A stretch of DNA of 64,000 nucleotides from an uncultured Methanoregulaceae archaeon (GCA_963705255.1 OY970061.1:128001-192000); one strand, 5' to 3'; shown: positions 4,135 through 59,145, counted from the first letter of the stretch. The notes: generated from the letters alone by a model not told the origin. Numbers and translations: made by a program.

Positions 4135-4361
4135 GGGGTTGTGGCCTAGCCCGGTATGGCGACGGGCTCCAGCGGTCTTTGCGTTCTTTCGTGCTCGCAG
4201 ATGATGAACAATGGGTCTACTGAGTTGACCTTTCCGGCATCAGCCGGAGAGGGCAAGGAGAAACTCGTAAGAGTTTCGAATTGATGCGATGATGACCCGT
4301 TGGAGCACTGATGCATGTCGGAGAGACCCGTCGATCGTGAGTTCAAATCTCACCAACCCCA
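4135..4361 (+). tRNA. trnW: tRNA-Trp(CCA) with a 153-nt intron (4173-4325) at position 37/38
   Basis: Acceptor stem GGGGTTG/CAACCCC, anticodon stem ACGGG/CCCGT, anticodon CCA 4169-4171, T-arm GTGAG-TTCAAAT-CTCAC; bulge-helix-bulge with CTCC/GGAG helix and AGC and AGA bulges. Confidence 0.95.
4201..4311 (+). ncRNA. box C/D guide sRNA within the tRNA-Trp intron (guides 2'-O-methylation at C34 and C39)
   Basis: Box C ATGATGA 4201-4207, D' CTGA 4220-4223, C' ATGATGA 4289-4295, D CTGA 4308-4311; guides TGGGTCT and CGTTGGAGC pair with the pre-tRNA so that the +5 base faces C39 and C34; this arrangement is known from euryarchaeal tRNA-Trp. Confidence 0.9.
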
Positions 4362-4453
4362 CGTTTTCTGACATCTTCTGATCCTACCGTTTACTATCCT
4401 GCCGTAAGGGCCCGGGTTTTTATCTTCTTACTCCCGACAGGGATCTGATATAC

Positions 4454-4843
4454 ATGACCAGCGAACGCTACAGACGCGGGTGGGAGAAGCTGAAAGAGGT
4501 AGACGGCGAGGCCGGCGAGAAGGTGATCGCGAGCCTTCAGGATATTGCACCGGACCTCGGGCGGTTCACGATCGAGTTCCCGTTCGGGGATATTTACACC
4601 CGCCCGGACCTGGATCTCCGCTCGCGGGAGATCGCGGTTGTCGCCGCCCTCACGGCGCTCGGCAACGCTGCACCGCAGCTGAAGGTGCATATCCACGGGG
4701 CGCTCAACGTAGGGGTCACACGGGACGAATTGGTCGGGATCATCACGATGATGGCCGTCTACGCGGGGTTCCCTGCTGCGCTCAACGGTATGGCAGCGGC
4801 AAAAGACGTGTTTGCCGAACGCGACGGGAAAGGGCTGGCCTAG
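4454..4843 (+). CDS. carboxymuconolactone decarboxylase (CMD/PcaC-like) family protein
   Basis: FGDIYTRPDLDLRSREIAVVAALTALG..QLKVHIHGALNVG..YAGFPAA pattern. Confidence 0.9.
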   Translation: MTSERYRRGWEKLKEVDGEAGEKVIASLQDIAPDLGRFTIEFPFGDIYTRPDLDLRSREIAVVAALTALGNAAPQLKVHIHGALNVGVTRDELVGIITMMAVYAGFPAALNGMAAAKDVFAERDGKGLA

Positions 4844-5172
4844 TCCCCCTTTTTCTTCTTCTTCCGGACCTCTTCCAGCCCGTCAAGTGCGGCGGGGAGG
4901 CATTCGAGGACGCCGACGAGCCCGGTCAGGTGCAGGTTCATAACGACCGCGCCCACGATCTCGTCCCTGGTCGCCCCGGCCTGCCACGCCATGATGGCGT
5001 GCAGCCGCACTCCTTCGGGGTTCCGGATAGCGGTCTGGATTGCGATATTGATGAGCTGTTTTGTCTTGTTATCGAGGCCGCTGAGGGTCCGCTGAACCTC
5101 CACGAGGTTGTTGAACCGCTCCTCAAGCTCGGGGCACTCCTTCCGGAACACGTCATAGGAACTCTTCGCCAT
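4840..5172 (-). CDS. CMD/AhpD-like family protein lacking CxxC
   Basis: LDNKTKQLINIAI...LHAIMAWQAGATRDEI pattern. Confidence 0.8.
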   Translation of the reverse strand: MAKSSYDVFRKECPELEERFNNLVEVQRTLSGLDNKTKQLINIAIQTAIRNPEGVRLHAIMAWQAGATRDEIVGAVVMNLHLTGLVGVLECLPAALDGLEEVRKKKKKGD

Positions 5173-5238
5173 AGTGCACGCTCGTACTACTTAGGTAATA
5201 TCTGCATCAGCCCGCGGAATTATATAACCTTGTATCTG

Positions 5239-5481
5239 GAGGAAGTCACATCAGTGACTTCCGAGACGAGAAGATTCTGACGCAGGAAGAATCTTCGAGT
5301 TCGAACAGGTCATCGGCTGATTCTTCAGGCCGGTTCTTCTCCACCTCCCGCAGTCGACGAACATACCCGCACTCGATTCCCTGATGGGATGATCTTATCT
5401 CACCGGCTCCTGATGCACATACTCGTAGTCGAAGATTCCTTCGGAATCTTCTCCACTCGTATGTTACTTCGTAACATACTC
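5239..5481. repeat. array of nested mini-hairpin modules in a divergent intergenic region
   Basis: GA[GGAAGTCAC-ATCA-GTGACTTCC]GA 5239-5264; GA[GAAGATTCT..AGAATCTTC]GA 5268-5298; TC[GAAGATTCC-TTC-GGAATCTTC]TC 5429-5453; TC[GTATGTTAC-TTC-GTAACATAC]TC 5457-5481. Confidence 0.85.
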
Positions 5482-5532
5482 GTTTTATGATAGATGACAG
5501 GCACATACTATTACCATCATACGGAGAGTTCC

Positions 5533-6714
5533 ATGTATTTAGTCGGAGAAGCACTTGTTGGTGATGGCGCGGAACTGGCGCATATCGATCTGCTCATGGG
5601 GGACAAGGAAGGCCCGATCGGCACGGCATTCGCGAACGCGATGTCGCAGCTCTCGGCGGGGCACACGCCGCTCCTCGCGGTCGTCCGCCCGAACCTGCTG
5701 ACCAAGCCGGTGACGCTCGTCATCCCGAAGGTCACGCTCAAGACGATGCCGCAGGTGAACGAGATGTTCGGCCCCGTGCAGGCAGCGGTCGCGAAAGCGG
5801 TTGCCGACAGCGTCGAGGAGGGGGCGTTCGCCAGTGCCGATATCGAGCAGCTGGTCATCCTCGTGTCGGCTTTTGTCCACCCGGAGGCAAAGGACTATAA
5901 TAAGATCTACCGGTTCAACTACGGGGCAACGAAGCTTGCCATCACCCGTGCGATGGAAGCGTTCCCCGACAGGAAGACGCTCATCTACGAGAAGGACCGT
6001 GCGGCCCACGCGATCATGGGGTTCAAGGTGCAGCGCCTCTGGGACCCGCCCTACCTGCAGGTCGCCCTCGACCTCGTGGACATGGCAAAGGTGGCAAGTG
6101 TCCTGACAGGACTCCCGGAGAACGACCACCTGATCATCGAGGCGGGAACCCCGCTCATCAAGAAGTTCGGCCTCTCCGTCCTCTCCGAGATCCGAAAATA
6201 CAAGCCCAACGCGTTCATCATCGCGGACCTCAAGATTCTCGATACCGGTAACCTCGAGGCCCGGATGGCGGCGGACGCGACCGCTGACGCCGTGGTCATC
6301 TCCGGGCTCGCCCCCACCTCCACGATGGAGAAGGCGATCGCCGAGGCCCGCAAGGTCGGGATCTACTCGATCATCGATATGCTGAACGTCCAGAACCCGG
6401 CCAGGGTCATCGAGAAGCTGAAGGTCAAGCCCGACATCGTGGAACTCCACCGTGCGATCGATGTCGAGGAGACTGCCCATGCTTGGGGCGACATCCCGGC
6501 GATCAGGAAGGCGGCGGGCGGCAAGCTCCTCGTGGCAACCGCCGGCGGCGTCCGCGTGAACGTGGTTAAGGACGCACTCAAGGCAGGCGCAGACATCCTC
6601 GTGGTCGGCCGCGCGATCACCGCGTCGAAGGATGTCGGGCACGCTGCGGACGAGTTCCTGGAGCAGCTGAACCGGGAAGAGATCGACCAGTTCAGGATTA
6701 TGACGGATTTCTAA
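5533..6714 (+). CDS. fae-hps: bifunctional formaldehyde-activating enzyme / 3-hexulose-6-phosphate synthase
   Basis: N-terminal VGEALVGDGAELAHIDL..GHTPLLAV..FGPVQAAVAKAV (Fae); C-terminal LQVALD, EAGTPLIK, ADLKILDTG, VVGRAIT (HPS); ATG at 5533 after GGAG. Confidence 0.95.
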   Translation: MYLVGEALVGDGAELAHIDLLMGDKEGPIGTAFANAMSQLSAGHTPLLAVVRPNLLTKPVTLVIPKVTLKTMPQVNEMFGPVQAAVAKAVADSVEEGAFASADIEQLVILVSAFVHPEAKDYNKIYRFNYGATKLAITRAMEAFPDRKTLIYEKDRAAHAIMGFKVQRLWDPPYLQVALDLVDMAKVASVLTGLPENDHLIIEAGTPLIKKFGLSVLSEIRKYKPNAFIIADLKILDTGNLEARMAADATADAVVISGLAPTSTMEKAIAEARKVGIYSIIDMLNVQNPARVIEKLKVKPDIVELHRAIDVEETAHAWGDIPAIRKAAGGKLLVATAGGVRVNVVKDALKAGADILVVGRAITASKDVGHAADEFLEQLNREEIDQFRIMTDF

Positions 6715-6747
6715 ATAGGAATTGAAAATTGATATAATTTTTTTCTC

Positions 6748-7548
6748 TCATTCAAAAATTTTTAATAAAAACTCTTTTGCTAATCGTTTTTGAGTTCGTT
6801 CCTCAACAACTCGAAGATCTTTGCCAATTTGAACTGATAAATTTATAATTTTCAGATAGTCTTTCATATTTTTCGAATTTACAACAACAGTTCCTGCATC
6901 GATTCCATTTTTTATAAACGATAACATGAAATCTTTTTGATCATTCCGATACCCAAATTTGACACCATTCTTGAAATTTCCATAATACATAGGCGATTCA
7001 CTTTCTTCAACATCATCTCCACTTTTATCTACGATTTTTTTGTCGATTTTGTCGATTTGTATGATAGAATAATATTGCATAAAAGTACCTAATGAAAGAG
7101 TTGTAATATCAATAAATAACTGAGCAATTTCAATTGAATCTTCTACTTTTCCGGATTCTGGTTTTTTATAAAAATGTTCTAAATCAACTCTGATATTGTT
7201 AATTTTTTTGAAGATTAAAGACGGAGTTAATCCCATCTTTTGCAAATTATCAATTTTTAAAGGAAAATTTAATTTTTCATATGGAATTCCTAAAGAATAA
7301 TGAATAATGTCACTTTGACATTCAATGGATCGCTTAACATTCGTTAATGCATTGATAAAGCCGTGATCGTTGGCAAGTTGAAAATCTTGTTTTGCATATT
7401 CTAGGAATTCAAGTGGTGAAATTTCAAAATGTTGTGAATCTTCTTCTAGAATTGAACTTCCAGAATCTGGTTCAACAATACAAGAGTTTGCATCAAAATT
7501 TATTTCTGAGAATTTCTCTTTTAACGTAAATTGTTGTTTATCTACCAT
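6748..7548 (-). CDS. AT-rich hypothetical protein with a HEPN-like RxxxxH motif
   Basis: Long clean ORF in strongly AT-rich DNA; EFLEYAKQDF..NALTNVKRSIE..KINNIRVDLEHFY resembles a HEPN helical bundle. Confidence 0.7.
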   Translation of the reverse strand: MVDKQQFTLKEKFSEINFDANSCIVEPDSGSSILEEDSQHFEISPLEFLEYAKQDFQLANDHGFINALTNVKRSIECQSDIIHYSLGIPYEKLNFPLKIDNLQKMGLTPSLIFKKINNIRVDLEHFYKKPESGKVEDSIEIAQLFIDITTLSLGTFMQYYSIIQIDKIDKKIVDKSGDDVEESESPMYYGNFKNGVKFGYRNDQKDFMLSFIKNGIDAGTVVVNSKNMKDYLKIINLSVQIGKDLRVVEERTQKRLAKEFLLKIFE

Positions 7549-7630
7549 TATCAAAAATTAAACAGAGGTAATATTTTATTCTGCTTATTATCCCTCACTT
7601 TAGAAAAATGCAGTGGCCACCCCCCCCTAT

Positions 7631-7754
7631 TCGCAGAGAGTCCCCGGCGACGCCTTGTCGGGTCGCAGTTGGGCAGGGTTTCGGATCCGGGTGTAAGTGC
7701 GTAGCGTAAAACCCGGCGAGGCGTTTTGTACGTAGGGCATCGCATCAGACGCAC
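7631..7754 (+). repeat. structured repeat family B, copy 1 (empty)
   Basis: GTAAGTGCGTAGCGTAAAAC..GGCGTTTTGTACGT..GGCATCGCATCAG..ACGCAC recurs at 8697-8825. Confidence 0.75.
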
Positions 7755-7807
7755 AACAATATCCGACCACAAACCCCATCATCTTTCCAAACTCCATTAA
7801 TATATTA

Positions 7808-8182: not shown

Positions 8183-8640
8183 GGTGCTTCCTCCAGGGAT
8201 CGCCCCTCCTTTATAAAGAGGGCCATTCCGGACGGTAAGTCTCCCATGGTCCATTCTCCGACGGAGAGTTCCCGGGCCGGATCCGGCACCGGAAATCTCC
8301 AGTGGAAGGGGTGCCAACGCCCGGCAAAATTCTTCTTTAAAACCAGTATTTTGGCAAAATCTTCATTTTAAGCGGGAAAAACCGTGCAATTTAGCGGGCT
8401 TGTACAGGTCGCGAAAAAAAGACAATTTATACCTTGTCCGGAAACCTGACGGGGCCCGGAGGGTCACTACGGCCGAAAAATAAAGGGGATCCCCGGAGGG
8501 CTGAAAAATGACCGGATTTTTCCCGAAAATGCTGAAAACTGCCCACCGGCGTTCCCGGTCCGGCACCGGAGGGTATCCGGGAGGAGGGATACGGTTTTTT
8601 TGCCGTTTTCCTCGTCGGCTGAAGTGGTCAAAAACCAGAC

Positions 8641-8825
8641 TCACGGAAGAAACTCTCATTCCTGTCAGGGCCCGCGGGACAAGATTCCCAATCAAGGTAA
8701 GTGCGTAGTGTAAAATGTCGAGTCTCTTCAGAGACAAGACAGGAGAAGAACGCATCAGCGTTCTTCGAGTCCCGACAAGGCGTTTTGCGCGTGAGGCGTC
8801 ACGTCAGGTCATCGGAAAAACGCAC
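8641..8825 (+). repeat. structured repeat family B, copy 2 (filled with hairpin modules at about 8720-8773)
   Basis: Same core as 7693-7754, with GA[GTCTC-TTCA-GAGAC]AA and GA[GAAGAACGC-ATCA-GCGTTCTTC]GA in the loop. Confidence 0.75.
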
Positions 8826-8873
8826 CGGAACTCCAGTCAGAAAACCTTAACAAAAATTTCACCTATATTGATT

Positions 8874-9071
8874 ATGAAAATAAACAAAAACTGGGACTGG
8901 AGTCAACTGGCCATTGGTTTCTGGTCAGGAGTAGCGGTCATCAGCCTGATCAATATTGCGTTGATTGTCGTACATCACAATCAGTTTCTGTATGACGAAT
9001 ATATTTTTGGAATTTCGATTGCTGCACTAATTGTATATGTGATAGTGAGGAGCAAGTTGGCAAGGCAATAA
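8874..9071 (+). CDS. small two-TM membrane protein (65 aa)
   Basis: MKINKNWDWSQLAIGFWSGVAVISLINIALIVV..YIFGISIAALIVYVIVRSK; two hydrophobic helices. Confidence 0.65.
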   Translation: MKINKNWDWSQLAIGFWSGVAVISLINIALIVVHHNQFLYDEYIFGISIAALIVYVIVRSKLARQ

Positions 9072-9254
9072 TTCCCCCGGCCTGTATCAGCCGGAGAACA
9101 GGATCATCTTTTTCTCGGTAAAAGACTATGGGGAAAATACGAGCAATTCAGGCCGCAAAAGAGATTTAAAAGTGTCGGGATGGACAGCGGTGTATAAAAA
9201 ACCCGGGGATGGCGTTGCAGGTAAAAGGTTATCAGACAGGGCAAAGGACGTGAA

Positions 9255-9968: not shown

Positions 9969-10540
9969 AAACGAATCCTGATCCACTTGTTCGCAGCGTA
10001 TATGCTCATGAAGATGTCATTCCCGGCCCGCACAGGACCGGTGCTCATCCCGCATTGACGCCAGGCCACGTCCGGCCTTGAATCGTACTGATTATTTCAG
10101 CATAAAAAATTTTCATGGACTTTGTTTCTTCATCTAAGATTTTTCAAAAAAATCCGGTAAAAAATTTCAAAAATTTTCTGTAAGGTCCGGCAAAAATATT
10201 TCCGGAAAAGCCGGTAAAAAAATTAGACATGATCTGCCAGAAACCCACCTTTCCAATCCCCCAGTCCCTCTCTATCGGAGCAGGGTTCCCCCGTCAGCCA
10301 CCTTCGGTACCCGGGGTATCGTAACCCCTTTGGGAGACTTGCATCCCCCAGCGATAATCCGGCCCCTCTACGGCCCCGGATTGCCCTTCCGGGGGGTCTA
10401 TTTCCGGCCCAGGTTGCAAATTTGGGTACATTTTAGCACAAATTTTCAGAAATCCCTGAATCCTTGAGATTCAAGCCAAACGGAGCATTTCGGTGCCGAT
10501 TGAAAAACGCTAATGTACGCTTTTGGGAGGCGAAACTCAG

Positions 10541-10680
10541 GGTCCGGAGGGGTATAGCATGGTCGAAGTGAAGGAAACCCCTGTTCTGGAGAGACCGATA
10601 TGACCGTCAGGGAATATCGGGCTGGAGAAGGCGTAGCCTTCGACTTTCTGGGTTGTTGACCGTCCGCCAGCCCCGGGCCC
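10541..10680 (+). repeat. long imperfect stem-loop carrying GA-flanked hairpin modules
   Basis: Outer arms GGGTCCGGAG/CCCCGGGCCC, GGTCGA/TTGACC and CTGGAGAG/CTTTCTGG; modules GA[CCGATAT GA[CC-GTCA-GG]GA ATATCGG] 10593-10620 and GA[GAAGGC-GTA-GCCTTC]GA 10625-10643. Confidence 0.6.
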
Positions 10681-10722
10681 CTTCAGGAATCCTTGCAAAA
10701 AATGACGGGTACTCCCTGCCGT

Positions 10723-12720
10723 TCAGAGGCAGAAGACCCAGAGGTTCCAGAAATTCACCCACCAGAGCATAGCGACGAGCGCGATGGCTATGATCGTATA
10801 ATGCAGCAGGTGCGGGAGCGTCCAGAACTTCCTCTTCCATGCAAGGGCAGTACAGATGACGGTCAGCCCGGTGAGAACCGCGCCGATGACCGGCACGGTC
10901 AGGACGGCTGTCAGGAGCACAGGTACTGCCTGGTCAAACAGGTAGGAGTGTATCAGGCCCTGGTCGGCAGTGACGGCCGGGAGCAGGACACCGGCAAACA
11001 CGAGGAGGAGAAGTGCGGCAGCTCCCGCGATCCAGCGTGCGATCCGGGCCTCGTTCGGTACCGGTGGTTCCGGGATCGCATAGGCTCTGCGGAATACAAA
11101 GAGCAGCGGCCAGAGCAGGACGGTCGCCAGCAGGATTCCGGCTGCAGTCCTGAGATTTTCCACGAATCCTGCTGTCGCATACCACGGGACGCGGTCATAG
11201 ACCAGGAACGGCATATTTCCGAGACAGAAATAGTCGACCGTGCCATCCGCTGCAGTGTGGAACACGATATCCCCGCTCGCCGGGCGGACCCCGTCGAGCC
11301 GGGAGAATACACCGGGCCGGACTTCGACTGCCTCGGCATGGCCGCTGGTGGAACTCTGGAGCGTACCATTCGGCGTCACCATAATCTCCACCTGCGGGTT
11401 CGGGGTCACGGACTTCCCGAACCTGGTATAGGTGTGCCGGTTGCTTTCATAGGTCCCGGCATACTGCTGCAACCGGGAGACATCCGATGGATTGGGTGCG
11501 GGTAAGGCTGAGGGCACCTGCGGGTAATAGTGGTTCATGAACTTCGTGAACAGTTCGTCGCGGGCTAGACTTCCTCCCGGACTGTTGTACCAGACAAAGA
11601 ACCCGGCCTGCGTATCGGGCAGGAGAATGAGAAGGGAGTGGAACGTATCCGTGTCGCCGCCGTGTCCGATCGCCCGCACGCCATTGTACTGCTGCTCGTA
11701 AAACCCGAGGCACATCCCGGAGACGCGGGGGTCGTTTGCGAACGCCCGGGCATGCATCAGGCCGGCGGCCTGTACGGAGAGAATCGTTGCATTCCCGTAC
11801 GTCCCGTTCATGAGGTGGGCGATCATGAATTTCGCCATGTCTGGCGCAGTGGAACTGATCGACCCTGCCGGGCTGGCAACAACGATGGCATCGTGGACGG
11901 GAACGTTCGCGCCATTGGCATACAGGTATCCCTCCGTGAGGTTGGATGCAAGGTCAGGCGGGAGATCTTCACGGATACTGGTCTGGTTCATCGAGAGCGG
12001 CGTTAATATGTGCGATTGCAGGTACTGGTCGAACGGCATTCCCGAGATATCCTCGACCACCACTGCCGCGAGCACCGTGCCGTAATTGGAGTACGAAGAG
12101 ACCGTTCCGGGAGGACGGACCCGGGCGGGAATATTCTCGGCGCAGTATTGCCGGAAGGGGATGAGATCGGGAATACTGTCAGCCACGGTGTGCCGTTCAT
12201 CGTCCTCGAATCCCGCCGTGTGCGTCATGAGGGAGCGCATCGTTACCGGATGTCCCGGATAGGTGTCCGGGATCTTGAAATCCTTCAGGTACGTATTGAC
12301 ATCGGCATCGAGATCGATCTTCCCCTCCCCGTTCAGCTGCATCACTGCGGTCCAGGTGAAGAGTTTTGTGACCGACCCGATGCGGAACGAGGTCGTATTC
12401 GCGTAGACCGGCGTCCTGTTTCCGATGTCATTGTAGCCATATCCTTTTGCAAAGACGATCCTGCCATCCTTCACGACTGCAACCGTTGCCCCGGGAATAT
12501 TGTACTTTGCAAGATTTGCAGGCATGACCTGGTCGAAGAACGCCGCGACCTCGGCCGGATCAGAGGGGCCGTTTCCGGGCGGTGTACCGTTCACGGAGGC
12601 CGGGACCTGGACCAGGCCGGATATGCCCGTTCCGTTCGATCCGGAATTCTGGGGAACAGAAAGGGCCGCTCCGGCGCTGACCAGAAAGCAGAGAAGAAGA
12701 ATAACACCCGGTATTTTCAT
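10723..12720 (-). CDS. secreted/membrane serine hydrolase, beta-lactamase class C family
   Basis: Signal peptide MKIPGVILLLCFLVSAGAA, SxxK (GSVTK), LMTHTAG, YSN, HGG; C-terminal TM helices; start set at ATG 12720. Confidence 0.9.
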   Translation of the reverse strand: MKIPGVILLLCFLVSAGAALSVPQNSGSNGTGISGLVQVPASVNGTPPGNGPSDPAEVAAFFDQVMPANLAKYNIPGATVAVVKDGRIVFAKGYGYNDIGNRTPVYANTTSFRIGSVTKLFTWTAVMQLNGEGKIDLDADVNTYLKDFKIPDTYPGHPVTMRSLMTHTAGFEDDERHTVADSIPDLIPFRQYCAENIPARVRPPGTVSSYSNYGTVLAAVVVEDISGMPFDQYLQSHILTPLSMNQTSIREDLPPDLASNLTEGYLYANGANVPVHDAIVVASPAGSISSTAPDMAKFMIAHLMNGTYGNATILSVQAAGLMHARAFANDPRVSGMCLGFYEQQYNGVRAIGHGGDTDTFHSLLILLPDTQAGFFVWYNSPGGSLARDELFTKFMNHYYPQVPSALPAPNPSDVSRLQQYAGTYESNRHTYTRFGKSVTPNPQVEIMVTPNGTLQSSTSGHAEAVEVRPGVFSRLDGVRPASGDIVFHTAADGTVDYFCLGNMPFLVYDRVPWYATAGFVENLRTAAGILLATVLLWPLLFVFRRAYAIPEPPVPNEARIARWIAGAAALLLLVFAGVLLPAVTADQGLIHSYLFDQAVPVLLTAVLTVPVIGAVLTGLTVICTALAWKRKFWTLPHLLHYTIIAIALVAMLWWVNFWNLWVFCL

Positions 12721-12930
12721 AGTATGGCATTCGTCTGAGATATAATAACATATTCGGGAGGTTTTACCTGGTACCGGGGTGCCGGTTATCACCCGTACAG
12801 GCACCGGCACCCGGTGTATCGTCATCAAATCCGTTCGTCATGACGTTGATTATTTATAATGAACCGATCGATCAACCACTGAGGGAAAAGCAGATCACCG
12901 AATTCCCCGAGAAACCGGAGTGAGCAAGAG

Positions 12931-13764
12931 ATGGTACCAAGGAGCGAAATTGCCCGGGCGGCAGGGATCACGACAAACCCGGTCGCTATCGTATGGACTG
13001 ACAAAAAACCCGAGAAAGCCCTTGAGTTCAGGCAAGGCGTCTGGAGCTGCGTGATGTGGCTGTTTGCGAAGGTTGCCAGAGAGGGGCGGACCGCGGTCTT
13101 CAGCCGGGACACGACCACGTGCGCCGGCGGGGCGATGGGGCTCGGGTTCGGGCGGCCGCTTGACCGGCACGCGGCCCGGAGCGAGGAGGGATTCTGCTCG
13201 TTCCTCTCGAACGGTATTGAAGGAGCGGTTGACCGGGCCGCCTACGAGGCGGCAATTGCGCAGAGCTTCGATGCCCACCACAAAAAGATGCTCACCGAAG
13301 GGGAACGCTTCTTAAAGAGCCCCGCAATTGTCCGGAAATTCCTCGCAAACCTGCCGGTATATGACGCGAAAGAGCGGTATATCGTGATGAAACCCGTCCA
13401 TGAGGTTGAGGACGGCGAAGATGTGCGGAGCATCGTGTTTGTCGCCAAGGCCGACCAGATCGCCGCCCTTTCGACGCTTGCGAACTACGGGACCGGGAAT
13501 ATCCGGGACGGGGTCATCGTCGCTGCCGGTGCTGCCGGGTGCCAGGCGATGGGCGTATGCACGTATGCCGAGGGAGAGAGCGGTGCGCCCCGCGCCGTAG
13601 TAGGCCTCACCGATCTCTCGGCACGGCGGGCAGTCCGCACGACGCTGGGCAAAGATGTCCTCACATTCTCCGTCCCCTACGGCATGTACCGTGAAATGGA
13701 ACGGAACGTACCGGGGAGTTTCCTTGAACTGGACCTCTGGAAGGAACTTCGGGATTCTGTGTAA
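12931..13764 (+). CDS. DUF169 family protein
   Basis: NPVAIVW, SCVMWL, TCAGGAMGLGFG, GAAGCQ, AVVGLTDLSARR motifs. Confidence 0.8.
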   Translation: MVPRSEIARAAGITTNPVAIVWTDKKPEKALEFRQGVWSCVMWLFAKVAREGRTAVFSRDTTTCAGGAMGLGFGRPLDRHAARSEEGFCSFLSNGIEGAVDRAAYEAAIAQSFDAHHKKMLTEGERFLKSPAIVRKFLANLPVYDAKERYIVMKPVHEVEDGEDVRSIVFVAKADQIAALSTLANYGTGNIRDGVIVAAGAAGCQAMGVCTYAEGESGAPRAVVGLTDLSARRAVRTTLGKDVLTFSVPYGMYREMERNVPGSFLELDLWKELRDSV

Positions 13765-13931
13765 AAAGTGAAGGAAGATTTTTTTTTAAAATACCCACCA
13801 ACCGATCCGGGAATTATTTTTAATTGCCGGATCCAGGCCCGTCTCTTTCCCTGTCCAGATCCGGGGCTGAACCCTACCGACCCCTTTTTAGGTATGCTCT
13901 GACCTAGTATAGATTAAAAGCCAGGCAGACT

Positions 13932-38074: not shown

Positions 38075-38300
38075 CAGGTTTTTGGGTTTGGGAGAAATCA
38101 TCAGCGTTCGTTGCAGACACTCATGGGTAGTCCCTTCGTCGCAATGGTCCTCATATAATCGGAGACAATATTTCGAAAAGAATGGGAATTAAAAGAGGGT
38201 CATTCTCAAACCATTTGAAATTATAGGCAATTTTTTTTGACAGAATTTCCTCTGAAAATCGTAGTATTCAGATATCACCGGTAGTCGTTTCTCTTCATCA

Positions 38301-38585
38301 TCGCGATGAACGCCGCCGCAGTCCAAGATCTTCTGGCGAAAATCTTCTCCACAGCCTTTGGCTGTCCCCGACGGGGAGCCAGCCGTGACCAGATGGTCAG
38401 GGCTGGCTGAAGAAAATTCTATTAAGAATTTTCGACTCGCCCCCGCGGCGGTTCAACCACCTTGCCCTGCCGTGCCTCTTCTCTTACGAGATTCGGCAAG
38501 TCGAAGAACCTGATGGTTCTTCTCCCGTCTCATTCCTGCGGAATTCGACGCCTCGGAGAGGCCCTGAGGCGGGGAGCGCTCGTAA
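38301..38585 (+). repeat. dispersed repeat family A (core1 + core2), both cores expanded with hairpin modules
   Basis: TCGCGATGAACGCCGCCGC..CGCCCCCGCGGCGG and TGCCCTGCCGTGCC..CTCGGAGAGGCCCTGAGGCGGGGAGCGCTCGTAA. Confidence 0.85.
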
Positions 38586-38695
38586 CTGAACGATTTTCAC
38601 GTTTTGAAGTGAACTCAATCGGTTTATATCTGTATCCATCAAGCCGTTTTTCCGCGTGGTTGTTCCGGTCGGGAATCCCCACCGGTTACCTTTTT

Positions 38696-40121: not shown

Positions 40122-41544
40122 ATGTCTCACCTAACATCAGACACTACCATGCACCAGCCGGATATCAGGAAGGTGGCGCTCTTTATCGCGGTTCTCTCGG
40201 GTTTTATAACGCCGTTTGACCTCTCCGCAGTCACCATCGCCCTGCCGTCCATCGGCTCGGAATTCGCTATGGATGCAGTCACCCTTTCCTGGGTGTCGAC
40301 CGCCTACCTGCTCGCGGCCGGGGTCTTTCTCGTCCCTTTCGGCAGGATCGCTGATATATACGGGCGGAAAAAAGTGTTTGTCGCCGGGCTCCTTCTCTTC
40401 ATCATCGCATCTGCCTGCATGGTCCTCTCGGTTTCTTCGGTCATGATCATCCTCCTTCGGGTGCTGCAGGGGACAGGTGCGGCGCTGATATTCGGCACGG
40501 CCGTCGCGATCCTCACGGAGGTCTCACCGGTTGCCGAACGGGGCCGGGCTCTGGGAATTTATACGACCGCTGTCTATCTCGGGCTCTCCCTGGGGCCATT
40601 CCTCGGCGGTTTCCTGGTCCAGCACTTCGGATGGCGGAGCCTCTTCCTCGTCAATGTCCCCATCGGGCTTTTTACGATCGCCCTGATCCTGCTCTACCTG
40701 AAAGGGGAGTGGGCAGACTCGCGGGGCGAGACGTTCGATCTTGGCGGCGCCGTCCAGTACCGGCCTTGCCCTGATCTGCATCATGTACGGGTTCTCGCTG
40801 CTGCCTGATACCGGGGGTTTTCTCCTCCTCGTGGCGGGTACCGCGATACTGGTATGGTTTGTGGCACGGGAATTGCGGGTCTCCCACCCCCTGATGGATA
40901 TCGGCCTCTGGACGAAGAACCGGGCCTTCGCCTTCTCCAACCTTGCCGCACTCATCAACTACAGTGCGACTTTTGCCGTCACGTTCTTCCTGAGCCTCTA
41001 CCTCCAGTATGTCAGGGATATTGATCCCTGGTACGCGGGGACCATCCTCATCATCCAGCCGGTCATGCAGGCCGTCCTCTCTCCCTATGCCGGGCGGCTC
41101 TCGGACCGGATCCCTCCCGGGTGGATCGCATCGGTCGGCATGGGGCTGACTGCGGTGGGGCTTGTGGCGCTCGCGTTTCTCGACAATACCACGCCGGTCC
41201 CTGTGCTCATGCTCATTCTCGCGGTGATCGGGATCGGGTTCGGCCTTTTTTCATCGCCGAACGTCAATGCCATCATGAGTTCGGTACAGAAAAAATATCT
41301 CGGGATCGCGTCGGGGACCCTAGGCACGATGCGTCTCGTGGGCCAGATGCTCTCCATGGGTATTGCGACGATGATCCTGGCAATCTACATCGGCAGGACC
41401 CAGATCACCTCTTCCCAGTACGGGCAGCTCCTCTCGGGCATGAAATCCGGCTTTCTGATCTTTTCCGTCCTCTGCCTCGTCGGTATTGCGTTCTCTCTTG
41501 TCCGGTGCGCACGTACCGATGAGTCTGAAGCGTGCGTGCGCTGA
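40122..41544 (+). CDS. MFS transporter (DHA2/EmrB-like, 14 TM), split by a +1 indel near 40760
   Basis: VPFGRIADIYGRKK motif A, LGPFLGG, WRSLFLVNVPIG, FSSPN. Confidence 0.9.
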
Positions 41545-43741: not shown

Positions 43742-44023
43742 TGCATACCCCGTATTGGGATTAGGATATACAATACTTCGTCAACTATTTAATGCTATCT
43801 TTATGCGTTGTTTGACCAAAAGACCTTTAAATTGGTGTTTGCCATTCATACATCCGGGTAGGGTTCCGTGCGCAGATCGCCCGGTATTTCCGTGTTTTTG
43901 CCGCCCGCCTTATGGTCCCTTGTATGCACGGCCGGGTACAGAGAAGGAGTCTTGGTGGAGGGAGGAGAGTCTTTTTGTCGCCAGTCGTGCAACTCTATAA
44001 GAGACGAGTAATTCGTGATCACC

Positions 44024-45746
44024 ATGAGCGATGTCTTTGAGAACGTGATGGAGCTTGCCAGACGCCGCGGGTTCATCTGGCCCACCTCGGAGTGCTACGG
44101 GGCGGTGGCCGGCTTCATCGACTACGGCCCCCTCGGTGCGATGATGAAACGGCGTATCGAGAATATCTGGCGGGATTTTTATGTCATCCGGGAGGGCTAT
44201 TACGAGATCGAGTGCCCGACCATTGCGCAGGAGGCAGTTTTTATCGCCTCCGGCCATGTGGCAGGGTTCGCCGACAAGATGTGCCAGTGCCCGCACTGCA
44301 GGGAATACCTCCGGGCGGACCATGTTGCCGAAGGCGGGGGGATACGGAACGCGTCCACGATGAAGAACGAGGAACTCTCCGCGGCACTCGCCACCTGCAG
44401 ATGTCTGGCCTGCGAAGAGGTGCTCGGCACGGTCGAGGTCTTCCAGTTCAACCTGATGTTCAGGACCATGATCGGCCCGGGCTCGCAGAGGACCGGCTAC
44501 CTGCGGCCCGAGACGGCCCAGGGGATGTTCGTCGATTTTACCCGGTTGCTCCGGTTCTATCGCGACAAACTCCCGTTCGGCGCTGTCCAGATCGGGAAGT
44601 CCTACCGCAACGAGATCTCGCCCCGGCAGGGCATGATCCGTCTCCGGGAGTTCACGCAGGCGGAAGCGGAGATCTTCGTCCACCCCGACGAGAAGGACCA
44701 CCACCCGTCGTTCCAGCGGTACGCAAACTACAGGATGCCGCTCCTCACCTCGGACCAGCAGCTCGCCTGCAAGGAGGCGGTCTCCCTCTCGATGCGGGAA
44801 GCCGTGGACAAGGGGGTGATCGCAAACGAGTACGTGGCGTATTACGTGGCCCTCACCCACGAGCTCGATGATCACGATCGGGATCAAACCGGAGCGGCTC
44901 CGCTTCCGGCAGCACCTGCCGGACGAGCTCGCCCATTACGCGAACGACTGCTGGGACGCAGAAATCTTCTCACCGAGGTTCGGCTGGGTCGAGACGGTCG
45001 GGATCGCGGACCGCACCGATTACGACCTGAACGCCCACGCGAAGCAGAGCGGAACCCCGATGACGGTCTTCATCCAGTATAAGGAGCCCCGGAAAGTCCC
45101 CCGGCGGCGGATCATCCCCAACATGGGGGTGCTCGGGAAGCAGTACCGCACCAAGGCGAAGGCGATCTTTGCCGCCCTCGCGACGGCAACCCCCGACAGC
45201 TCGGGAGCCGACGTGGTCGTGGACGGGGAGAAGATCCACATACCGCCCGACCTGTTCGAGGTCCGGGACGAGATCGTAGAAGTCCGTGGTGAAGATATCG
45301 TCCCGCACGTGATCGAACCCTCGTACGGGATCGACCGGATGTGCTACGCAGTCCTCGAGCAGGCCTATGACGAGGACACCGCGGATGGCGAGAAACGGAT
45401 CGTGATGCGGTTCTCGCCGAACGTCGCGCCTGTCCAGGTCGCTGTTTTCCCCCTTATGTCCCGCGACGGTCTCGACACGATTGCCCAGGAGATCGCGGGG
45501 AAACTCCAGAAGAAGGGGATCCTTGCGGAATACGACGACAGTGGTGCGATCGGGCGGCGTTACCGGCGGCAGGACGAGATCGGGACACCCTTCGCGATTA
45601 CCGTCGATTACGATACGAAGGAGAACAACACCGTCACACTCCGGGACCGGGACAGCATGAGACAGGTCCGGGTTTTTATCAATAAGCTGCCGGAGGTCGT
45701 CGGGTCGCTTGTTGAGGGGAACCTGACGTTTGGGGAGATAGAGTGA
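44024..45746 (+). CDS. glyS: glycine--tRNA ligase (archaeal/eukaryotic alpha2 type), split by a +1 indel near 44867
   Basis: DYGPLG, LRPETAQG, YRNEISPRQGMIRLREFTQAEAE, IEPSYGIDR, IGRRYRRQDEIGTP. Confidence 0.97.
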
Positions 45747-46274: not shown

Positions 46275-46327
46275 CGAATTAACGTTTTTTTCCAATATTT
46301 TGCAACCTGAAACTTTCTGAGAATAAG

Positions 46328-46480
46328 ATGGGGGCTGATGCCCCCATACCCCCCTTTGCGATGGACGCCGCCGCCCCGAAGGCCGCCCCGCGGCGGCCTC
46401 ACTTGCCTACAAATCCCCAACCCGTTAATCTGCCCCGCCGTGCCCCGTGAGGGGCCCTGAGGCGGGGAGCCCTCGCAAAT
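46328..46480 (+). repeat. dispersed repeat family A, minimal (empty) copy
   Basis: GCGATGGACGCCGCCGCCCCGAAGGCCGCCCCGCGGCGG and TGCCCCGCCGTGCCCC-GTGA-GGGGCCCTGAGGCGGGGAGCCCTCGCAAAT, preceded by ATGGGGGC-TGAT-GCCCCCAT. Confidence 0.85.
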
Positions 46481-47120: not shown

Positions 47121-47411
47121 TGCCCCGCCGTGCCTCGAAGTCCTTACGACCTTCTCACATCTCGTCCCTTTGGGACTCAATAACTCGAAAAACCCGCTGG
47201 TTCTTCGAAGAACTCTGTTCTTCTCATCTCTCGAGTCTGATGACTTTCGAGATTCTCCCGTCTCATCCCTCCGGGATTCGAAGAGTCGAAGAACCTTAAC
47301 GGTTCTTCTTGATTTCGTGGTTCTGATGAATCACTCATAAGTCGAAGTTGCACTTCTCCACAGCCCTGCGGGCTGTCCTCGGAGCGGCCCTGAGGCGGGG
47401 GACCCTCACAA
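47121..47411 (+). repeat. repeat family A core2 expanded by about 240 nt (about 10 hairpin modules)
   Basis: TGCCCCGCCGTGCC .. modules .. CTCGGAGCGGCCCTGAGGCGGGGGACCCTC. Confidence 0.88.
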
Positions 47412-48440: not shown

Positions 48441-48444
48441 CCAT

Positions 48445-50684
48445 ATGACCTTCATCAGTCACCCCCTCGTAAAGCCGGACAGCATTGAATCGCGGGAGTA
48501 CCAGCTCTCGGTCGCGATGCGTGCTTTGGACGGCAACACGATGGTGATCCTGCCGACGGGCCTCGGCAAGACAGCCGTGGCGCTGCTCGTCGCCGCCTCC
48601 CGGCTCTATAACGAGGGGGGAAAAGTACTGATGCTTGCCCCGACGAAGCCGCTCGTCGAGCAGCACCTCCGCTATTTCGAACGCTACCTGCTCGCAAAAA
48701 CTTCTCCCGGCTCGGATGCCTCTCCCTTCGTCATGTTCACCGGCGAATCCCCGCCGGATGAACGGACTGCTGACTGGAACCGGGCGACTGTAATCCTTGC
48801 AACCCCGCAGGTTATCAAGAATGATGTCATCGGGGGACGGTACTCGTTAAAAGATGTCTCGCTCCTTGTCGTGGACGAATGCCACCGTGCGGTGGGGAAC
48901 TATGCCTACGTCTTCCTGGCCCAGCGCTACCTGGCTACTGCTGACAAGCCGCTCCTCCTCGCCATGACCGCTTCGCCGGGAGGGGCACCGGAAAAGATGC
49001 AGGAAGTCTGTGCCAACCTCGGGATCACCCGGATCGAGTCCCGGACTGAGAACGATCCCGATGTCCGCCCGTACGTCTTCGAGCGGGACCTCGAGTATAT
49101 CATGATTGAGCTGCCCCTGAGCTCAGGTCGGCTATCGATGTCATCAACGCACTCATCGAGAACCGGCTTGCCCTTCTTGCATCCCTGCACTTCACCGTGC
49201 CGAAACGCGACCGGCTCACGATGAAGGCGCTCAACGCGATCAACGCCCAGATCCAGCAGCGGATCGCGAACCGCGATCCTGCCGCGTATTCCGCGGCCTC
49301 GGTCTACGCGGAGTGCATGAAGCTCAAGCATGCCGTCACCCTTGCGGAATCGCAGGGGAGCGAGGTGCTCAAAGGCTACCTTGCAAAACTCATCGCAGAA
49401 GGAACGGGCGCCGGTGGCAGCAAGGCAAGCCAGCGTCTGGCACAGGACGTGTCGTTCCGCGAGCTCTTTATAGGCTCCACTGGCTGGACAACGGAGCTGC
49501 ACCCGAAGCCGGGGATCGCGCTCGGGTTTGTGAAGGAGCAGCTGGAAACGCACCCGGACAGCAGGATCATCATCTTCGCAACCTACCGGGATACGGTCCA
49601 GCTCCTCGTGGATTTCCTCGCAAAACACGGGATTGCGAGCGAGCGGTTCGTCGGCCAGGCCACGAAGGATGCGGAGAAGGGGCTCAGCCAGAAGAAGCAG
49701 ATCGCGGCGCTGGACCGGTTTCGCAGGGGTGAGTTCAGGGTTTTGATTGCAACGTCGGTCGGGGAGGAAGGGCTTGATGTCCCGTCCACGGACCTGGTGA
49801 TCTTCTACGAGGCGGTGCCCTCGGAGATACGGTCCATCCAGCGCAAAGGCCGGACCGGCAGGTCGGGGGCCGGGAGAGTGGTTGTGCTGGTGACAAAAGG
49901 GACCTCGGACGAGGTGTTCCGCCACGTCAGCCAGGCCAAGGAGAAGATGATGCACAAGAGCATGCGCACGATGGGAAGCATGACATCGGCACCGCCAGTG
50001 CCCGTCACCGTTGAACAGTCGAGCATCGACGAATTTACCCCCGCGGACCAGCGGATGATCATTATCGATGACCGCGAGACGTCCTCCAAAGTCGTGGAAG
50101 TACTCTCGAACCTCGGGGCGTCGATCCGTGTCGAGCGGCTGGCGCACGGGGACTATGCCATCGGGGACCGGATCCTCGTCGAGCGCAAGACCGCCCGGGA
50201 CTTTGTCGACACGCTCATCAACCGCGACCTCCTCGGGCAGGTCAAAGAGATGGCCGAGGCAGTCACGCGCCCGGTGCTGATCATCGAGGGCGGGGACCTC
50301 TACACCCAGCGGGACGTCCACCCGAATGCGATTCGGGGCGTGCTTGCCGCACTCACCGTGGATATGGGGGTATCGTTGCTCTTTACCCGGGACGAGCAGG
50401 ACACCGCCCAGATGCTCTTCGTGCTCGCGAAGCGCGAGGAGGGCGAGCGGGGGGAGCGCAAGGTCCACCCGCACAAGTCGCACCGCTCCCTGAAGGAGGA
50501 GCAGGAGTATATCGTCTCCTCGTTCCCGGAAATTGGTCTTAGAAATGCCCGGCTATTGCTGGCGCATTTCGGTTCGATTCAGGGGATTGTGAATGCTTCC
50601 CTGGAGGAGCTGGTTGCGGTGCGGGGGATCGGGGAGAAGACGGCGGGGAAGGTGTACCAGCTGTGCCGGAGGGGGTATAATTGA
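48445..50684 (+). CDS. hef: Hef helicase-nuclease (SF2 DExH helicase + ERCC4/XPF nuclease + HhH), split by an indel near 49116
   Basis: LPTGLGKT, DECH, TASPG, QRKGRTGR, GDY..VERKT..D, tandem HhH. Confidence 0.95.
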
Positions 50685-50834: not shown

Positions 50835-50994
50835 TCGCGATGAACGCCGCCGCCCCCGGCGGGGCGCCCCCGTGGCGGATCAATTACTTAGAAGAAAAAT
50901 GGTAACCCGCCCCGCCGTGTTCGAAGTTCCTGCGAACTTCTCGACCTCCTTCGTCGGTCCTCGGAGAGGCCCTGAGGCGGGGGATCCTCGTAAA
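50835..50994 (+). repeat. dispersed repeat family A (core1 empty, core2 with a short insert)
   Basis: TCGCGATGAACGCCGCCGCCCCCGGCGGGGCGCCCCCGTGGCGG; GCCCCGCCGTG-T-TC[GAAGTTC-CTGC-GAACTTC]TC..CTCGGAGAGGCCCTGAGGCGGGGATCCTCGTAAAT. Confidence 0.85.
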
Positions 50995-53955: not shown

Positions 53956-54078
53956 CGGCATTTCTCCGCGAACCTTTCTTCCGATCCCCCTTCCCGGCAA
54001 TGCATCCGCCGTTTTATGCGCCGGGTCCCTGCTGTACTTTGCCTGTACGGGGACTCCGGGACTCTCCTTTCGGATCTC

Positions 54079-57255: not shown

Positions 57256-57406
57256 TGAAAAACACACCCGATCTGTTGTATAAAATGCTGACTATCAATA
57301 GTAGATATATTCCACCTATAAAAACAATGACATTTATTTTCCATCCGGTAAAAAGCGGGGGGAAGGGCGTTGGCATGAATATACCGGCAGGAAGCCGGCC
57401 TGTTGT

Positions 57407-58213
57407 TCATCGCCCGCCATAGGACCTTATGTGCTTCCATGCCCGGTGATAGGGTTCATAGTCCTGATTATCCTCGTCGTATATCCCGGGATCCATCCTC
57501 CCGTACCGGATCCTGTCGTCGCCCACGGGACAGACTTTGATGCAGATCCCGCAGGGGGAAATGAAGCGCTTGGACAGCGCTTCGGACCGGGCTGCACAGG
57601 TCTTCTTGTCGATGAGGCCGTCCGGGTAGTCCCTGCCGCTGATGGCTTTCACGGGGCAGCTGTTCACGCACCTCATGCACCTGGTACACAACGGTCTCTC
57701 CAGGATCGGGTCCTCAGGGAGTTCGGCAGATGTGAATACCGAGGAGAAGCGGACCCTCGGCCCGAGTTGTGGCGTGAGGAGGGTATTGTTCACCCCGAAA
57801 TTCCCGAGGCCGGCGAGGTACGCGGCATGGCGGTGCGAGAAGAAGGCGACCGGCCTTTCCTTAAGGACGCCAATCGACCCGTACCCGTCCCGCGGGATCC
57901 ATACCGAGGGGTATCCTTCCGAGGTGAGGAAGGTCGCTATCCGGTACCCGTCCTGGTCGAGCAGGGCATTGACGGTCCGGTAGAGCTCATGGTAATGGAT
58001 AGAAGGAGTTGTCTCAATTATCGGCAGGCTGACCGGCATCCCGATGACAATGACGGTTTTCACTTCCGGGTAAATTGCCTTCGGTCGGAATTCTTCCGGC
58101 ACCCACGGCTCGAACAGGGGCACGTCCCAGCGCCCGGCCGAAGCAAAGCCCACCAGCGGGATGTCCAGACCCGTACATTTTTCAAGGATCTGCCGCTTCA
58201 GTTCACGGTTCAT
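57407..58213 (-). CDS. epoxyqueuosine-reductase-like (QueG-like) 4Fe-4S protein
   Basis: FSHRHAAYLAGLG..GPRVRF, CTRCMRCVNSCP, CGICIKVCP. Confidence 0.82.
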   Translation of the reverse strand: MNRELKRQILEKCTGLDIPLVGFASAGRWDVPLFEPWVPEEFRPKAIYPEVKTVIVIGMPVSLPIIETTPSIHYHELYRTVNALLDQDGYRIATFLTSEGYPSVWIPRDGYGSIGVLKERPVAFFSHRHAAYLAGLGNFGVNNTLLTPQLGPRVRFSSVFTSAELPEDPILERPLCTRCMRCVNSCPVKAISGRDYPDGLIDKKTCAARSEALSKRFISPCGICIKVCPVGDDRIRYGRMDPGIYDEDNQDYEPYHRAWKHIRSYGGR

Positions 58214-58382
58214 TGCCTGAGCATGGAACGGGCGGTGATAAATCGGTTTGGGGGATATGCGGCTACGGCCTGATCATCGTTGCGCCCTTTCGTTCTCTTC
58301 CGGCACATCCATGGTAAAACACCAGGAGGTGGGGGACAGACATCCCCGGTCCGGGTACCCGGGGACAGCGGCGCCGGTTTTT

Positions 58383-58799
58383 TCACTCACCGGACACGGT
58401 GCAGATGATGGTCCGTTCCCTTCCGGCGTTCACGTCGAGTTCGAGCAGCACGACCTGCTGCCATGTCCCGCACATCAGTCCGTCTTCGGAAAAAGGGAGT
58501 GTCAGCGAAGGGCCGATTATTGATGCTTTCACATGCGACCTGCCGTTACCGTCGCCCCACCGGGCGTTGTGGGCATAGTCTGCGTCATCCGGCGCAAGAA
58601 CGGAGAGTGCACGCCGGAGGTCTGACAGCACTCCCGGTTCGTACTCAATCGTGGTGAGGGCCGCGGTTGAATGCTGGACGAAGAGGTGGACGAGGCCGCT
58701 CTTCACACCGCTCTTCCGTATCGCTGTGCTCACATCCCGCGAGATGTCGATGATGTCGCCCTCGCGCGACGAGATAATCTTCAGGCTGGTCCGGTCCAT
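58383..58799 (-). CDS. yjbQ: YjbQ/UPF0047 family protein
   Basis: HSTAALT, YAHN..DGNGRSHVKAS, GTWQQVVLLELD. Confidence 0.92.
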   Translation of the reverse strand: MDRTSLKIISSREGDIIDISRDVSTAIRKSGVKSGLVHLFVQHSTAALTTIEYEPGVLSDLRRALSVLAPDDADYAHNARWGDGNGRSHVKASIIGPSLTLPFSEDGLMCGTWQQVVLLELDVNAGRERTIICTVSGE

Positions 58800-58919
58800 G
58801 GGTACACCGTATACCTGTCTCGTGCCTCGCGCTTTAAAACAATTCCTGATGTCGTTCGATTTTGAATTATCAGAGCAGTTTTCATAAATGGAAACGATGT
58901 GGTTATCATCTCCAGTCTA

Positions 58920-59145
58920 ATGAGGGTGACCCCCTCTCTCCCCCAGAGGGGGAGGCAACCCAAGGGGAGCACCCCCCTTGACCCCCACCCCCTCTTTGGA
59001 AAATTTTTTATTTTCCTTCTGAGTGACTATCCTATTTTGGGGGATGCCCACGCGGCGGGGGCGGAATCTGAAGGGTCCGTCAGGACCCTGAAGATGAGAA
59101 GAACTCATCAGAGTTCTTCGAAGCACCATGTGCTGGAGCCCCCAA
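58920..59145. repeat. GC-rich multi-hairpin element with GA-flanked modules
   Basis: A GGGGGC..GCCCCC stem (59057-59143) encloses GA[ATCT GA[AGGGTCC-GTCA-GGACCCT]GA AGAT]GA[GAAGAACTC-ATCA-GAGTTCTTC]GA[AGCAC-CAT-GTGCT]. Confidence 0.75.

Follow-up and report, generated by a model that had tools for sequence, protein, structure and literature searches.

The window analysed here is a stretch of 64,000 nucleotides (G000:C1:128001–192000) from the genome of an uncultured Methanoregulaceae archaeon (G000, the source genome; 2.60 Mb in a single contig, 54.6% G+C, completeness score 89.5%), and the subject is a family of very short hairpins scattered through it, together with the larger repeats in which most of them lie. 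Each hairpin, called a module below, is a perfect palindrome with GA on both sides on one strand and TC on both sides on the other. A first-pass annotation of the window had cited eight loci with such modules. These loci are flanked by ordinary housekeeping genes, and each one does hold perfect GA..GA or TC..TC palindromes where they had been placed (4260–4277, 5241–5262, 5431–5451, 5459–5479, 8745–8766, 10627–10641, 38503–38522, 47207–47223, 47288–47308, 50923–50940, 59072–59089, and 59098–59119 were verified). The module nested within another at 47224–47255 reads as claimed, and the pair ATTCC/GGAAT (38532) and ATCCC/GGGAT (47265) is confirmed as compensatory on reading. Modules recur at different loci in differing combinations, with the same hairpin in many flank contexts, and they nest within loops of other structured elements. 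Arrays are built as TC-hairpin-TC-hairpin-TC.

The whole genome contains 429 modules with a stem of at least 5 bp. The GA/TC flanks are present on 105 of the 269 perfect hairpins with a stem of at least 9 bp (39%), for a chance value of about 0.8% (2/256 flank pairs). In intergenic DNA, 207 modules (stem of at least 6 bp) occur, a strong excess over the 7.05 ± 2.44 (maximum 11) of 20 dinucleotide-preserving shuffles. In the 288 modules with a stem of at least 6 bp, the loops read on the GA strand are ATCA (66), GAA (34), TTCA (18), GTCA (17), GCA (11), AAA (10), GTA (7), GCAA (7), or GGA (6), with a closing pair that is mostly C-G, and they follow the patterns GNA and NTCA. The stem starts with GAAG in 161 of them. 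The strand asymmetry of the loops and the constancy of the grammar, both described initially from the window, hold for this set. The outer pattern GAGAAGAA..TTCTTCGA alone gives 99 matches in the genome; in the 3+4+3 class, the three inner pairs are all Watson–Crick in 57 of 64 cases (1.0 expected), with nine distinct inner triplets, so the hairpin itself is preserved and not merely a word. The hairpin at 5459 differs by a compensatory change of A-T to G-C from its ortholog in the sister genome G037, the closest of those compared (84%–97% identity in syntenic stretches).

Hairpins also occur as cassettes of two or more. The predicted DNA folds of three cassettes have z-scores of −4.8 to −6.5 on both strands and are slightly stabler on the GA strand. 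In these predictions, the GA pairs form 2 × 2 internal loops between stacked helices or close the end of a helix. C(GNA)G triloops and tandem sheared GA/AG pairs make exceptionally stable hairpins in single-stranded DNA, and the GA strand fits this established behavior of tandem sheared G.A pairs and GNA triloops, as does the bias toward G.T mismatches described below.

Around the cited regions, BLAST delineates dispersed repeats with sharp borders, which fall into three related families, type A, type B, and S type. Their elements are of 150–800 bp, without an open reading frame (ORF), present in tens of copies, and intergenic. Type A has three GC-rich hairpins (H1–H3, with H3 ending in GGCCCTGAGGCGGGG), about 50 copies in the genome, and termini that are inverted copies of each other across about 70 nt; an ORF running through a type A end was rejected as such, being the long inverted repeat. 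Elements of type B are 350–560 bp long. The S type, which is basal, has intact copies of 253–257 bp without GA modules. All three families end in GGCTCTGTAGAAAT-like inverted repeats of about 14 nt (GGCTCTGTAGAAAT / ATTTCTACAGAGCC-like ends). There are 29 such pairs of terminal inverted repeats (TIRs) 150–800 bp apart in G000, and their 8-bp flanks match at 7 or more of the 8 positions in 16 of the 29 pairs, compared with 9 of 2000 random pairs. The duplicated 8 bp are AT-rich, and some elements have perfect target-site duplications (TSDs). Filled and empty orthologous sites occur in both directions between G000 and G037, the empty site having one copy of the 8-bp target. [quoted passage not shown]

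Flanks similar to those at three or more other loci are found for 222 of the 288 modules, and no similar flanks for 50 of them. With TIRs, TSDs, and empty sites for the carriers and 222 of the 288 modules inside repeats, most hairpins have been dispersed as passengers of TIR/TSD-bounded MITEs, a point that the first-pass annotation had overlooked. The hairpins are additions to the MITE bodies, since the intact S type lacks them and the H3 apex is a bare 11–12 nt in 22 copies of type A. The type A core is present in all 18 same-genus genomes sampled and in none of 12 genomes from the order's other families. As MITEs, the carriers are ordinary: they share with prokaryotic MITEs the lack of an ORF, TIRs of about 14 nt (about 70 nt in type A), an 8-bp TSD, multiple intergenic copies, and empty sites. 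They differ from the usual MITEs in an interior that is a variable mosaic of GA-clamped hairpins, changing independently of the ends, and in that a search of part of the genus for a few transposase families turned up no cognate enzyme sharing their ends. Large differences between the type B elements of G000 and G037, at G000:C1:2190537–2190850 and 1902473–1902862, are bounded by direct repeats of element-internal sequence (e.g., about 20 nt, CTTCGGGAAGAGCAGTCTCC), which points to recombination between internal repeats.

In the window, a MITE of about 570 bp lies at 38085–38652 (plus strand), with a type A body and a type-B-like left part. Its TIRs are degenerate (GGTTTGGGAGAAAT ... CATCAAGCC), the target duplication is about GGTTTTT, and the loops of H2 and H3 contain hairpin arrays. 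Repeat coverage extends over 38240–38636, with a TIR-like match at 38085. The element is missing at the orthologous site in G037 and in G055, and contigs of the metagenome runs X4, X5, and X7 skip it (joint 38084→38693, the only metagenome joint used; many joints within repeats derive from paralogous copies). In run X1, from a near-identical strain, the contigs break at the repeats. Further type A sequences lie on the plus strand. At 46320–46480, there is a core without GA modules, unnoted in the initial description, with H1 (ATGGGGGC-TGAT-GCCCCCAT) followed by H2 and by H3, which ends in GGCCCTGAGGCGGGG. At 47123–47400, the apex of an H3 hairpin is a 255-nt array of modules in TC orientation, including the nested example. 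At 50840–50990, an H2–H3 part has an array of two hairpins, 50 nt long, in its H3 apex (module 50921–50942). On the minus strand, a degenerate S-type MITE at 58880–59200 (repeat coverage 58910–59151) can be aligned to four intact copies with 8-bp TSDs. The sole extra block with respect to these four copies is a 56-nt two-hairpin cassette at 59067–59122 (plus strand), in a loop of the MITE, which reads ..GA-AGGGTCC-GTCA-GGACCCT-GA-AGAT-GA-GAAGAACTC-ATCA-GAGTTCTTC-GA and has a predicted fold of two hairpins, with internal loops of tandem GA (z = −6.3).

The unit that is gained and lost can be read from orthologous sites. For the strict set, an alignment of 1.22 Mb of G037 (contigs C1, C2, C4, C6, and part of C5) to G000 was used, from which indels of 16–150 nt were retained when each side had 17 or more identical columns out of 20; there are 44 such clean indels. 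Seven of these contain GA/TC-flanked hairpins (50, 53, 55, 59, 62, 102, and 118 nt). A looser list over 0.62 Mb, which includes blocks failing the strict flank filter, adds three hairpin blocks of 37, 55, and 64 nt. By eye, each block has at least two stem-loops, typically GA-h1-GA, a linker of 4–7 nt, and GA-GAAGAnnn-loop-nnnTCTTC-GA. In the compared spans, 39 of 75 modules are kept in G037 and 36 are not, in agreement with the gain and loss between relatives that had been anticipated. The single hairpin had been proposed as the mobile unit, and the comparisons do not bear this out: none of the 44 clean orthologous indels is a single GA/TC-flanked hairpin, no paralogous empty site was found for a single module (0/288), and the length of the type A H3 apex passes from 11–12 nt (in the 22 bare copies) directly to 50 nt or more, without a single-hairpin state. 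Blocks of 37–120 nt with at least two stem-loops are the unit gained and lost. The polarity is clear, the empty state being the family consensus, for the H3 apex, for H2, for the S-type MITE (where the block at 59067–59122 is a gain in the window copy), and for the small RNA (sRNA) described below. Two insertions in type A copies of G037 are a 53-nt block, in the H3 apex, and one of 59 nt, in H2. Most observed blocks lie within or next to the loop or stem of a hairpin that was already there (H2 and H3 of the MITEs, the S-type loop, and the sRNA's D′–C′ loop).

The flanking dinucleotides had been read either as a 2-bp target duplication or as a structural clamp. The seven hairpin indels can slide by 0, 0, 0, 0, 0, 1, and 2 nt, and other nontandem indels by up to 12 nt. 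In 3 of the 7 cases, a matching GA or TC dinucleotide is found within 3+3 nt of the junction at the empty site, compared with 27 of 74 control indels and 0.34 of random positions. A fit by eye of five of the seven insertions to a GA/TC duplication was not upheld by this formal control. With repeats of only 0–2 nt and no enrichment at the junctions (3/7 vs. 0.34–0.36), GA/TC therefore looks like a structural clamp rather than a target duplication, the GA pairs being more plausibly a component of the fold. The seven insertion sites have no upstream sequence in common.

The best example of such an insertion is in a gene for a functional RNA, at the left end of the window. The tRNA-Trp(CCA) gene at 4134–4368 (plus strand), which ARAGORN did not call, has an intron of about 150 nt with a box C/D sRNA (Rfam sR3 match at 4197–4313; 57.5 bits for a gathering score of 41, with the C, D′, C′, and D boxes all aligned). 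The exons are invariant in an alignment of eight genomes of the family. A 62-nt two-hairpin cassette (4228–4289, plus strand; TCCGGC-ATCA-GCCGGA, then GA-GAAACTC-GTAA-GAGTTTC-GA) sits exactly between the D′ and C′ boxes; it is left unaligned in the alignment to the Rfam model, and its GA strand has the sense of the RNA. G037 also holds the insert. It is missing in 31 of the 36 other family genomes with a match (30 of the 31 have the two halves of the sRNA at most 26 nt apart, and G149 was assigned by alignment; G004, with about 300 nt, and G186, with about 76 nt, were set aside from the comparison). At the same site of the sRNA, there are two hairpins in G094, two in G201, and four in G284. 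The GAAACTC hairpin is common to G000, G094, and G284, with a different partner hairpin in each.

Among genomes, the modules of GAAGAA type are unevenly distributed. They number 99 in G000, 111 in G037, 69 in G159, 24 in G056, and 4 in G149, and there are none in 10 of 15 same-genus genomes. Counts of 4–17 (e.g., 13 in G094 and 17 in G168) come from four genomes belonging to three further genera of the family, and a control with the reversed pattern gives a single match in 201 genomes. In G168, at C1:1580104–1580497, ten identical GA-flanked modules (GAGAAGAATCCAGAAGATTCTTCGA) follow each other at a regular spacing of 41 nt. We found no description of these repeats in methanogens in the literature, the supplementary MITE lists (PMC11602168) not being covered, which agrees with the initial statement that none was known.

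The search for HUH (Y1) enzymes covered the six module-rich genomes G000, G037, G159, G056, G094, and G168, of which the five besides G000 are 96%–99% complete. The co-occurrence with HUH (Y1) enzymes suggested for the modules is not seen: PF01797 has no match in any of the six, and control genomes do match, so a REP/RAYT or IS200-type mechanism is unsupported. PF01610 (ISL3-type transposase) has no match in G000, and PF12762 (IS1595-type) is found only in G056, without the TIRs of the MITEs. PF13610 (IS240-type DDE) matches two ORFs in G000 and, over the genus, 28 loci in 17 of 81 genomes; TIR pairs of the MITE kind do not flank these ORFs. The two ORFs of G000 (C1:2147359–2148546 and 2152905–2154092) are of 396 amino acids, 78% identical, with an N-terminal zinc ribbon and without shared flanks or inverted repeats. 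The GGCTCTGTAGAAAT-type GGCnnTG ends with an 8-bp duplication may resemble those of the ISPna2 group (IS1595) as well as the ends of IS6-type elements, which is a lead and not a result. Three TnpB-like ORFs (L001–L003) match in G000. An ωRNA or the right end of an IS200/IS605 element was considered and rejected, as a neighboring tnpB and a Y1 gene are both lacking. The ORF families present in several copies in G000 are glycosyltransferases and FrhB-like proteins. A TIR-like pair 1334 bp apart (G000:C1:2259976–2261309; GGCGCTGTTGAAAT / ATTTCAACAGCGCC) encloses a DNA methyltransferase-like ORF with an SPPY motif and not a transposase; this segment is perhaps MITE-like, with the ORF as a passenger. 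One 345-amino acid ORF (G000:6855–7079) matches GIY-YIG and may be a repair protein.

In the reading that we favor, with a probability of about 0.6, the GA-flanked mini-hairpins are sub-repeats of a lineage-specific archaeal MITE superfamily, together with free-standing cassettes of at least two hairpins. Its parts concerning the MITE carriers, the multi-hairpin unit of the indels, the clamp in preference to a duplication, and the lack of an HUH enzyme are well supported. A DDE-type transposase supplied in trans would move the MITEs, and the hairpins would ride along. On the GA strand, GA..GA would close each helix as a tandem sheared G.A clamp; such a clamp with a GNA triloop would make a self-contained fold, tolerated within other structures. 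Cassettes would be copied between arrays through homology or microhomology, by ectopic gene conversion or by template switching at forks stalled by hairpins, with the shared ends GA-GAAGA.. / ..TCTTC-GA, though a so far unrecognized enzyme might do this instead. Copying is favored because the modules share helix ends and because most of the observed insertions are in or next to other hairpins. Several points weigh against this reading. The mechanism of cassette copying is one that we infer, and no transposase bounded by the TIRs of the MITEs was found in a search for four families in part of the genus. At least three cassettes have apparently unique flanks (G000:1591951, G037:C1:49746, and the sRNA), and gene conversion between paralogs cannot explain these. 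In two independent insertions, a hairpin is interrupted at an identical position, after GAGAA, which could reflect a site-specific activity. In type A elements, the modules are always on the strand opposite to that on which the element's own H3 loop reads GNA or GNRA, which this reading does not account for. Finally, among one-mismatch modules of the loop-defined family subset, G.T (25) exceeds A.C (9) on the GA strand with a nominal p of 0.009 that is too optimistic, because related copies are counted as independent, and over all one-mismatch GA-flanked hairpins the bias is absent (37 G.T vs. 35 A.C).

Some of these points would suit a cassette that is itself a tiny nonautonomous mobile element, moved by an unrecognized enzyme or through an RNA intermediate and preferring hairpin loops. 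The clean indels of 37–118 nt without target duplication, the insertions in unique DNA and in a conserved RNA gene, the two hairpins split after GAGAA, 14 family-like "solo" modules with nonrepeated flanks, the many flank contexts of a same hairpin, and the patchiness among genomes and genera (99, 111, 69, and 24 modules vs. 0 in 10 of 15 same-genus genomes) could all be explained in this way. We nevertheless hold it unlikely: there is no candidate enzyme (Y1 is absent in the six genomes), the blocks vary in size and content (37–118 nt, two to four hairpins) unlike an element with fixed ends, and most insertions are within repeats, where recombination could yield the same pattern. It is likewise doubtful that a cassette of about 50 nt, with two GA-clamped hairpins, is a mobile element of its own, which would be the smallest known from prokaryotic chromosomes and would enter loops of MITE hairpins and of the box C/D RNA without duplication, through an enzyme that has escaped recognition or an intermediate of RNA or single-stranded DNA. 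The modules might instead be selected RNA motifs (3′-end stabilizers, terminators, or protein sites of GA-motif or kink-turn type), with mobility secondary, which we consider improbable. Their density per kb is indeed highest in convergent intergenic regions (0.59, vs. 0.38 in tandem and 0.26 in divergent ones), G.T is tolerated on the GA strand in the subset mentioned (25 vs. 9), in each of the four genomes with modules in the tRNA-Trp sRNA the GA strand has the sense of the RNA, and the module at 8745 is identical in G037 inside a well-conserved block. Tandem G.A pairs are, in addition, the core of box C/D kink-turns. On the other hand, the orientation with respect to the flanking genes is mixed (61 sense and 45 antisense in tandem regions), the 36 of 75 modules not kept in the sister species stand against selection of the motif, and most modules are within MITEs in either orientation. 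No module matches a described Rfam family at threshold: sR3, which is the host sRNA, is alone in the whole window in passing its gathering score, and the best subthreshold match on a module region is GA-cis (RF02987; 19.1 vs. 34.7 bits), the others looking like chance. By reading of sequence and folds, the inspected modules are without the 3-nt bulge of a kink-turn, and their GA/GA pairs are symmetric 2 × 2 loops or helix ends. A kink-turn in hairpin H3 was also considered and rejected, as the second G.A pair would be G.U. The least probable explanation is the one put forward at the outset, a single hairpin as the minimal mobile unit, duplicating TC/GA and moved as single-stranded DNA by RAYT, IS200/IS605 TnpA, or a similar HUH (Y1) enzyme. 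The constant GA/TC flanks, the TC-hairpin-TC-hairpin-TC arrays, and the GNA triloops typical of stable DNA hairpins speak for it, as does the AG target dinucleotide of the yeast mitochondrial GC42 (PMC4478555). It is already largely refuted by the lack of single-hairpin empty sites (0/288), apices, and indels (0/44), by the 0–2-nt repeats and junction counts at control level (3/7 vs. 0.34–0.36), by the absence of PF01797 in all six genomes, and by the lack of any bias of orientation with replichore or GC skew.

[quoted passage not shown] In the passages of that paper on these and on the hairpin elements of sponge mitochondria (PMC2800124), the Allomyces elements lack flanking duplications, and the resemblance to the cassettes lies in tiny two-hairpin units without flanking duplication, in intergenic DNA and in structured RNA genes, differing between close relatives. 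Here, the host DNA is an archaeal chromosome, the hairpins have GA clamps and GNA or NTCA loops, and they mostly ride MITEs; the likeness is best taken as a functional analogy and not as homology. The yeast mitochondrial GC clusters, as described by Wu and Hao (2015; PMC4478555), have structure-preserving changes, arrays, and shuffling, all shared with the cassettes. For GC42, the same paper gives two sets of the AG target dinucleotide around the element and one set at empty sites, whereas the cassettes are without such a dinucleotide signature (3/7 vs. 0.34–0.36, with 0–2-nt repeats). The bacterial repetitive extragenic palindromes (REPs), their mosaic elements (BIMEs), and the REPINs with RAYT (PMC2817692) are, like the modules, abundant intergenic palindromes that make up mosaics, differ from strain to strain, and are enriched at the 3′ ends of genes. 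They differ in that no Y1/RAYT gene is present in the six genomes, that the modules are mostly in TIR/TSD-bounded MITEs, that the host is an archaeon, and that their conserved flanks are GA dinucleotides, one on each side, instead of a 5′ tetranucleotide of the GTAG type. For palindromes derived from IS200/IS605, the lack of duplication fits, but there is neither a Y1 gene nor a common upstream target sequence here.

The spread of very short hairpin repeats, be they REPs, mitochondrial GC clusters, or double-hairpin elements, is still poorly understood. This archaeal lineage combines hundreds of modules of simple grammar, MITE carriers with clear ends, and many sequenced relatives with clean filled and empty alleles, and in it a single site of a conserved functional RNA shows a series of 0, 2, or 4 inserted hairpins. 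It thereby allows one to test an enzyme against copying between hairpins, and whether tandem G.A clamps make folds insertable. If the cassette were a mobile element of its own, the mitochondrial double-hairpin elements would gain an archaeal counterpart, which could be studied across hundreds of genomes. For annotation, the lesson is that an intergenic block rich in hairpins is, in these methanogens, mobile DNA and need not be an RNA gene.

In a divergent intergenic region, two modules in GA orientation at 5239–5290 (plus strand) consist of a GGAAGTCAC-ATCA hairpin and an imperfect GAAGATTC hairpin; in G037, the first is swapped for ACAGGTC-ATCA-GACCTGT, with flanks and loop unchanged. Two modules in TC orientation follow at 5425–5481 (GA strand on the minus strand; GAAGATTCC and GTATGTTAC hairpins). 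Both are kept in the G037 ortholog, with changes of their GA-strand loops from GAA to GCA and from GAA to AAA. Between these two places, the 111 bp of 5303–5414 in G000 correspond to about 965 bp in G037:C6, including a methyltransferase-like ORF, with modules on both sides, one of them swapped.

A free-standing two-hairpin cassette at 8720–8768 (plus strand) is formed by GTCTC-TTCA-GAGAC, a linker, and GA-GAAGAACGC-ATCA-GCGTTCTTC-GA (predicted DNA fold, z = −4.8). Compared with G037, its second hairpin (8743–8768) is identical and the first has two differences. The intergenic block that contains it, 8597–8900, is about 97% identical to G037, for about 75% in the neighboring 8400–8596, and may be a conserved noncoding RNA or leader. 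A second free-standing cassette, at 10593–10643 (plus strand; CCGATAT..ATATCGG, GCTG, GA-GAAGGC-GTA-GCCTTC-GA), has flanks without a similar copy elsewhere in the genome and is thus "solo." Around it, the 3.8 kb of 9983–13782, with a gene of the beta-lactamase family (10723–12828), are replaced by about 0.8 kb in G037. Elsewhere in the window, the genes for an MFS transporter (40122–41544), prolyl-tRNA synthetase (44015–45746), a Hef-type helicase/nuclease (48445–50684), and gyrA (59322–61746) each appear as two overlapping ORFs, which suggests frameshift errors of the assembly or pseudogenes.

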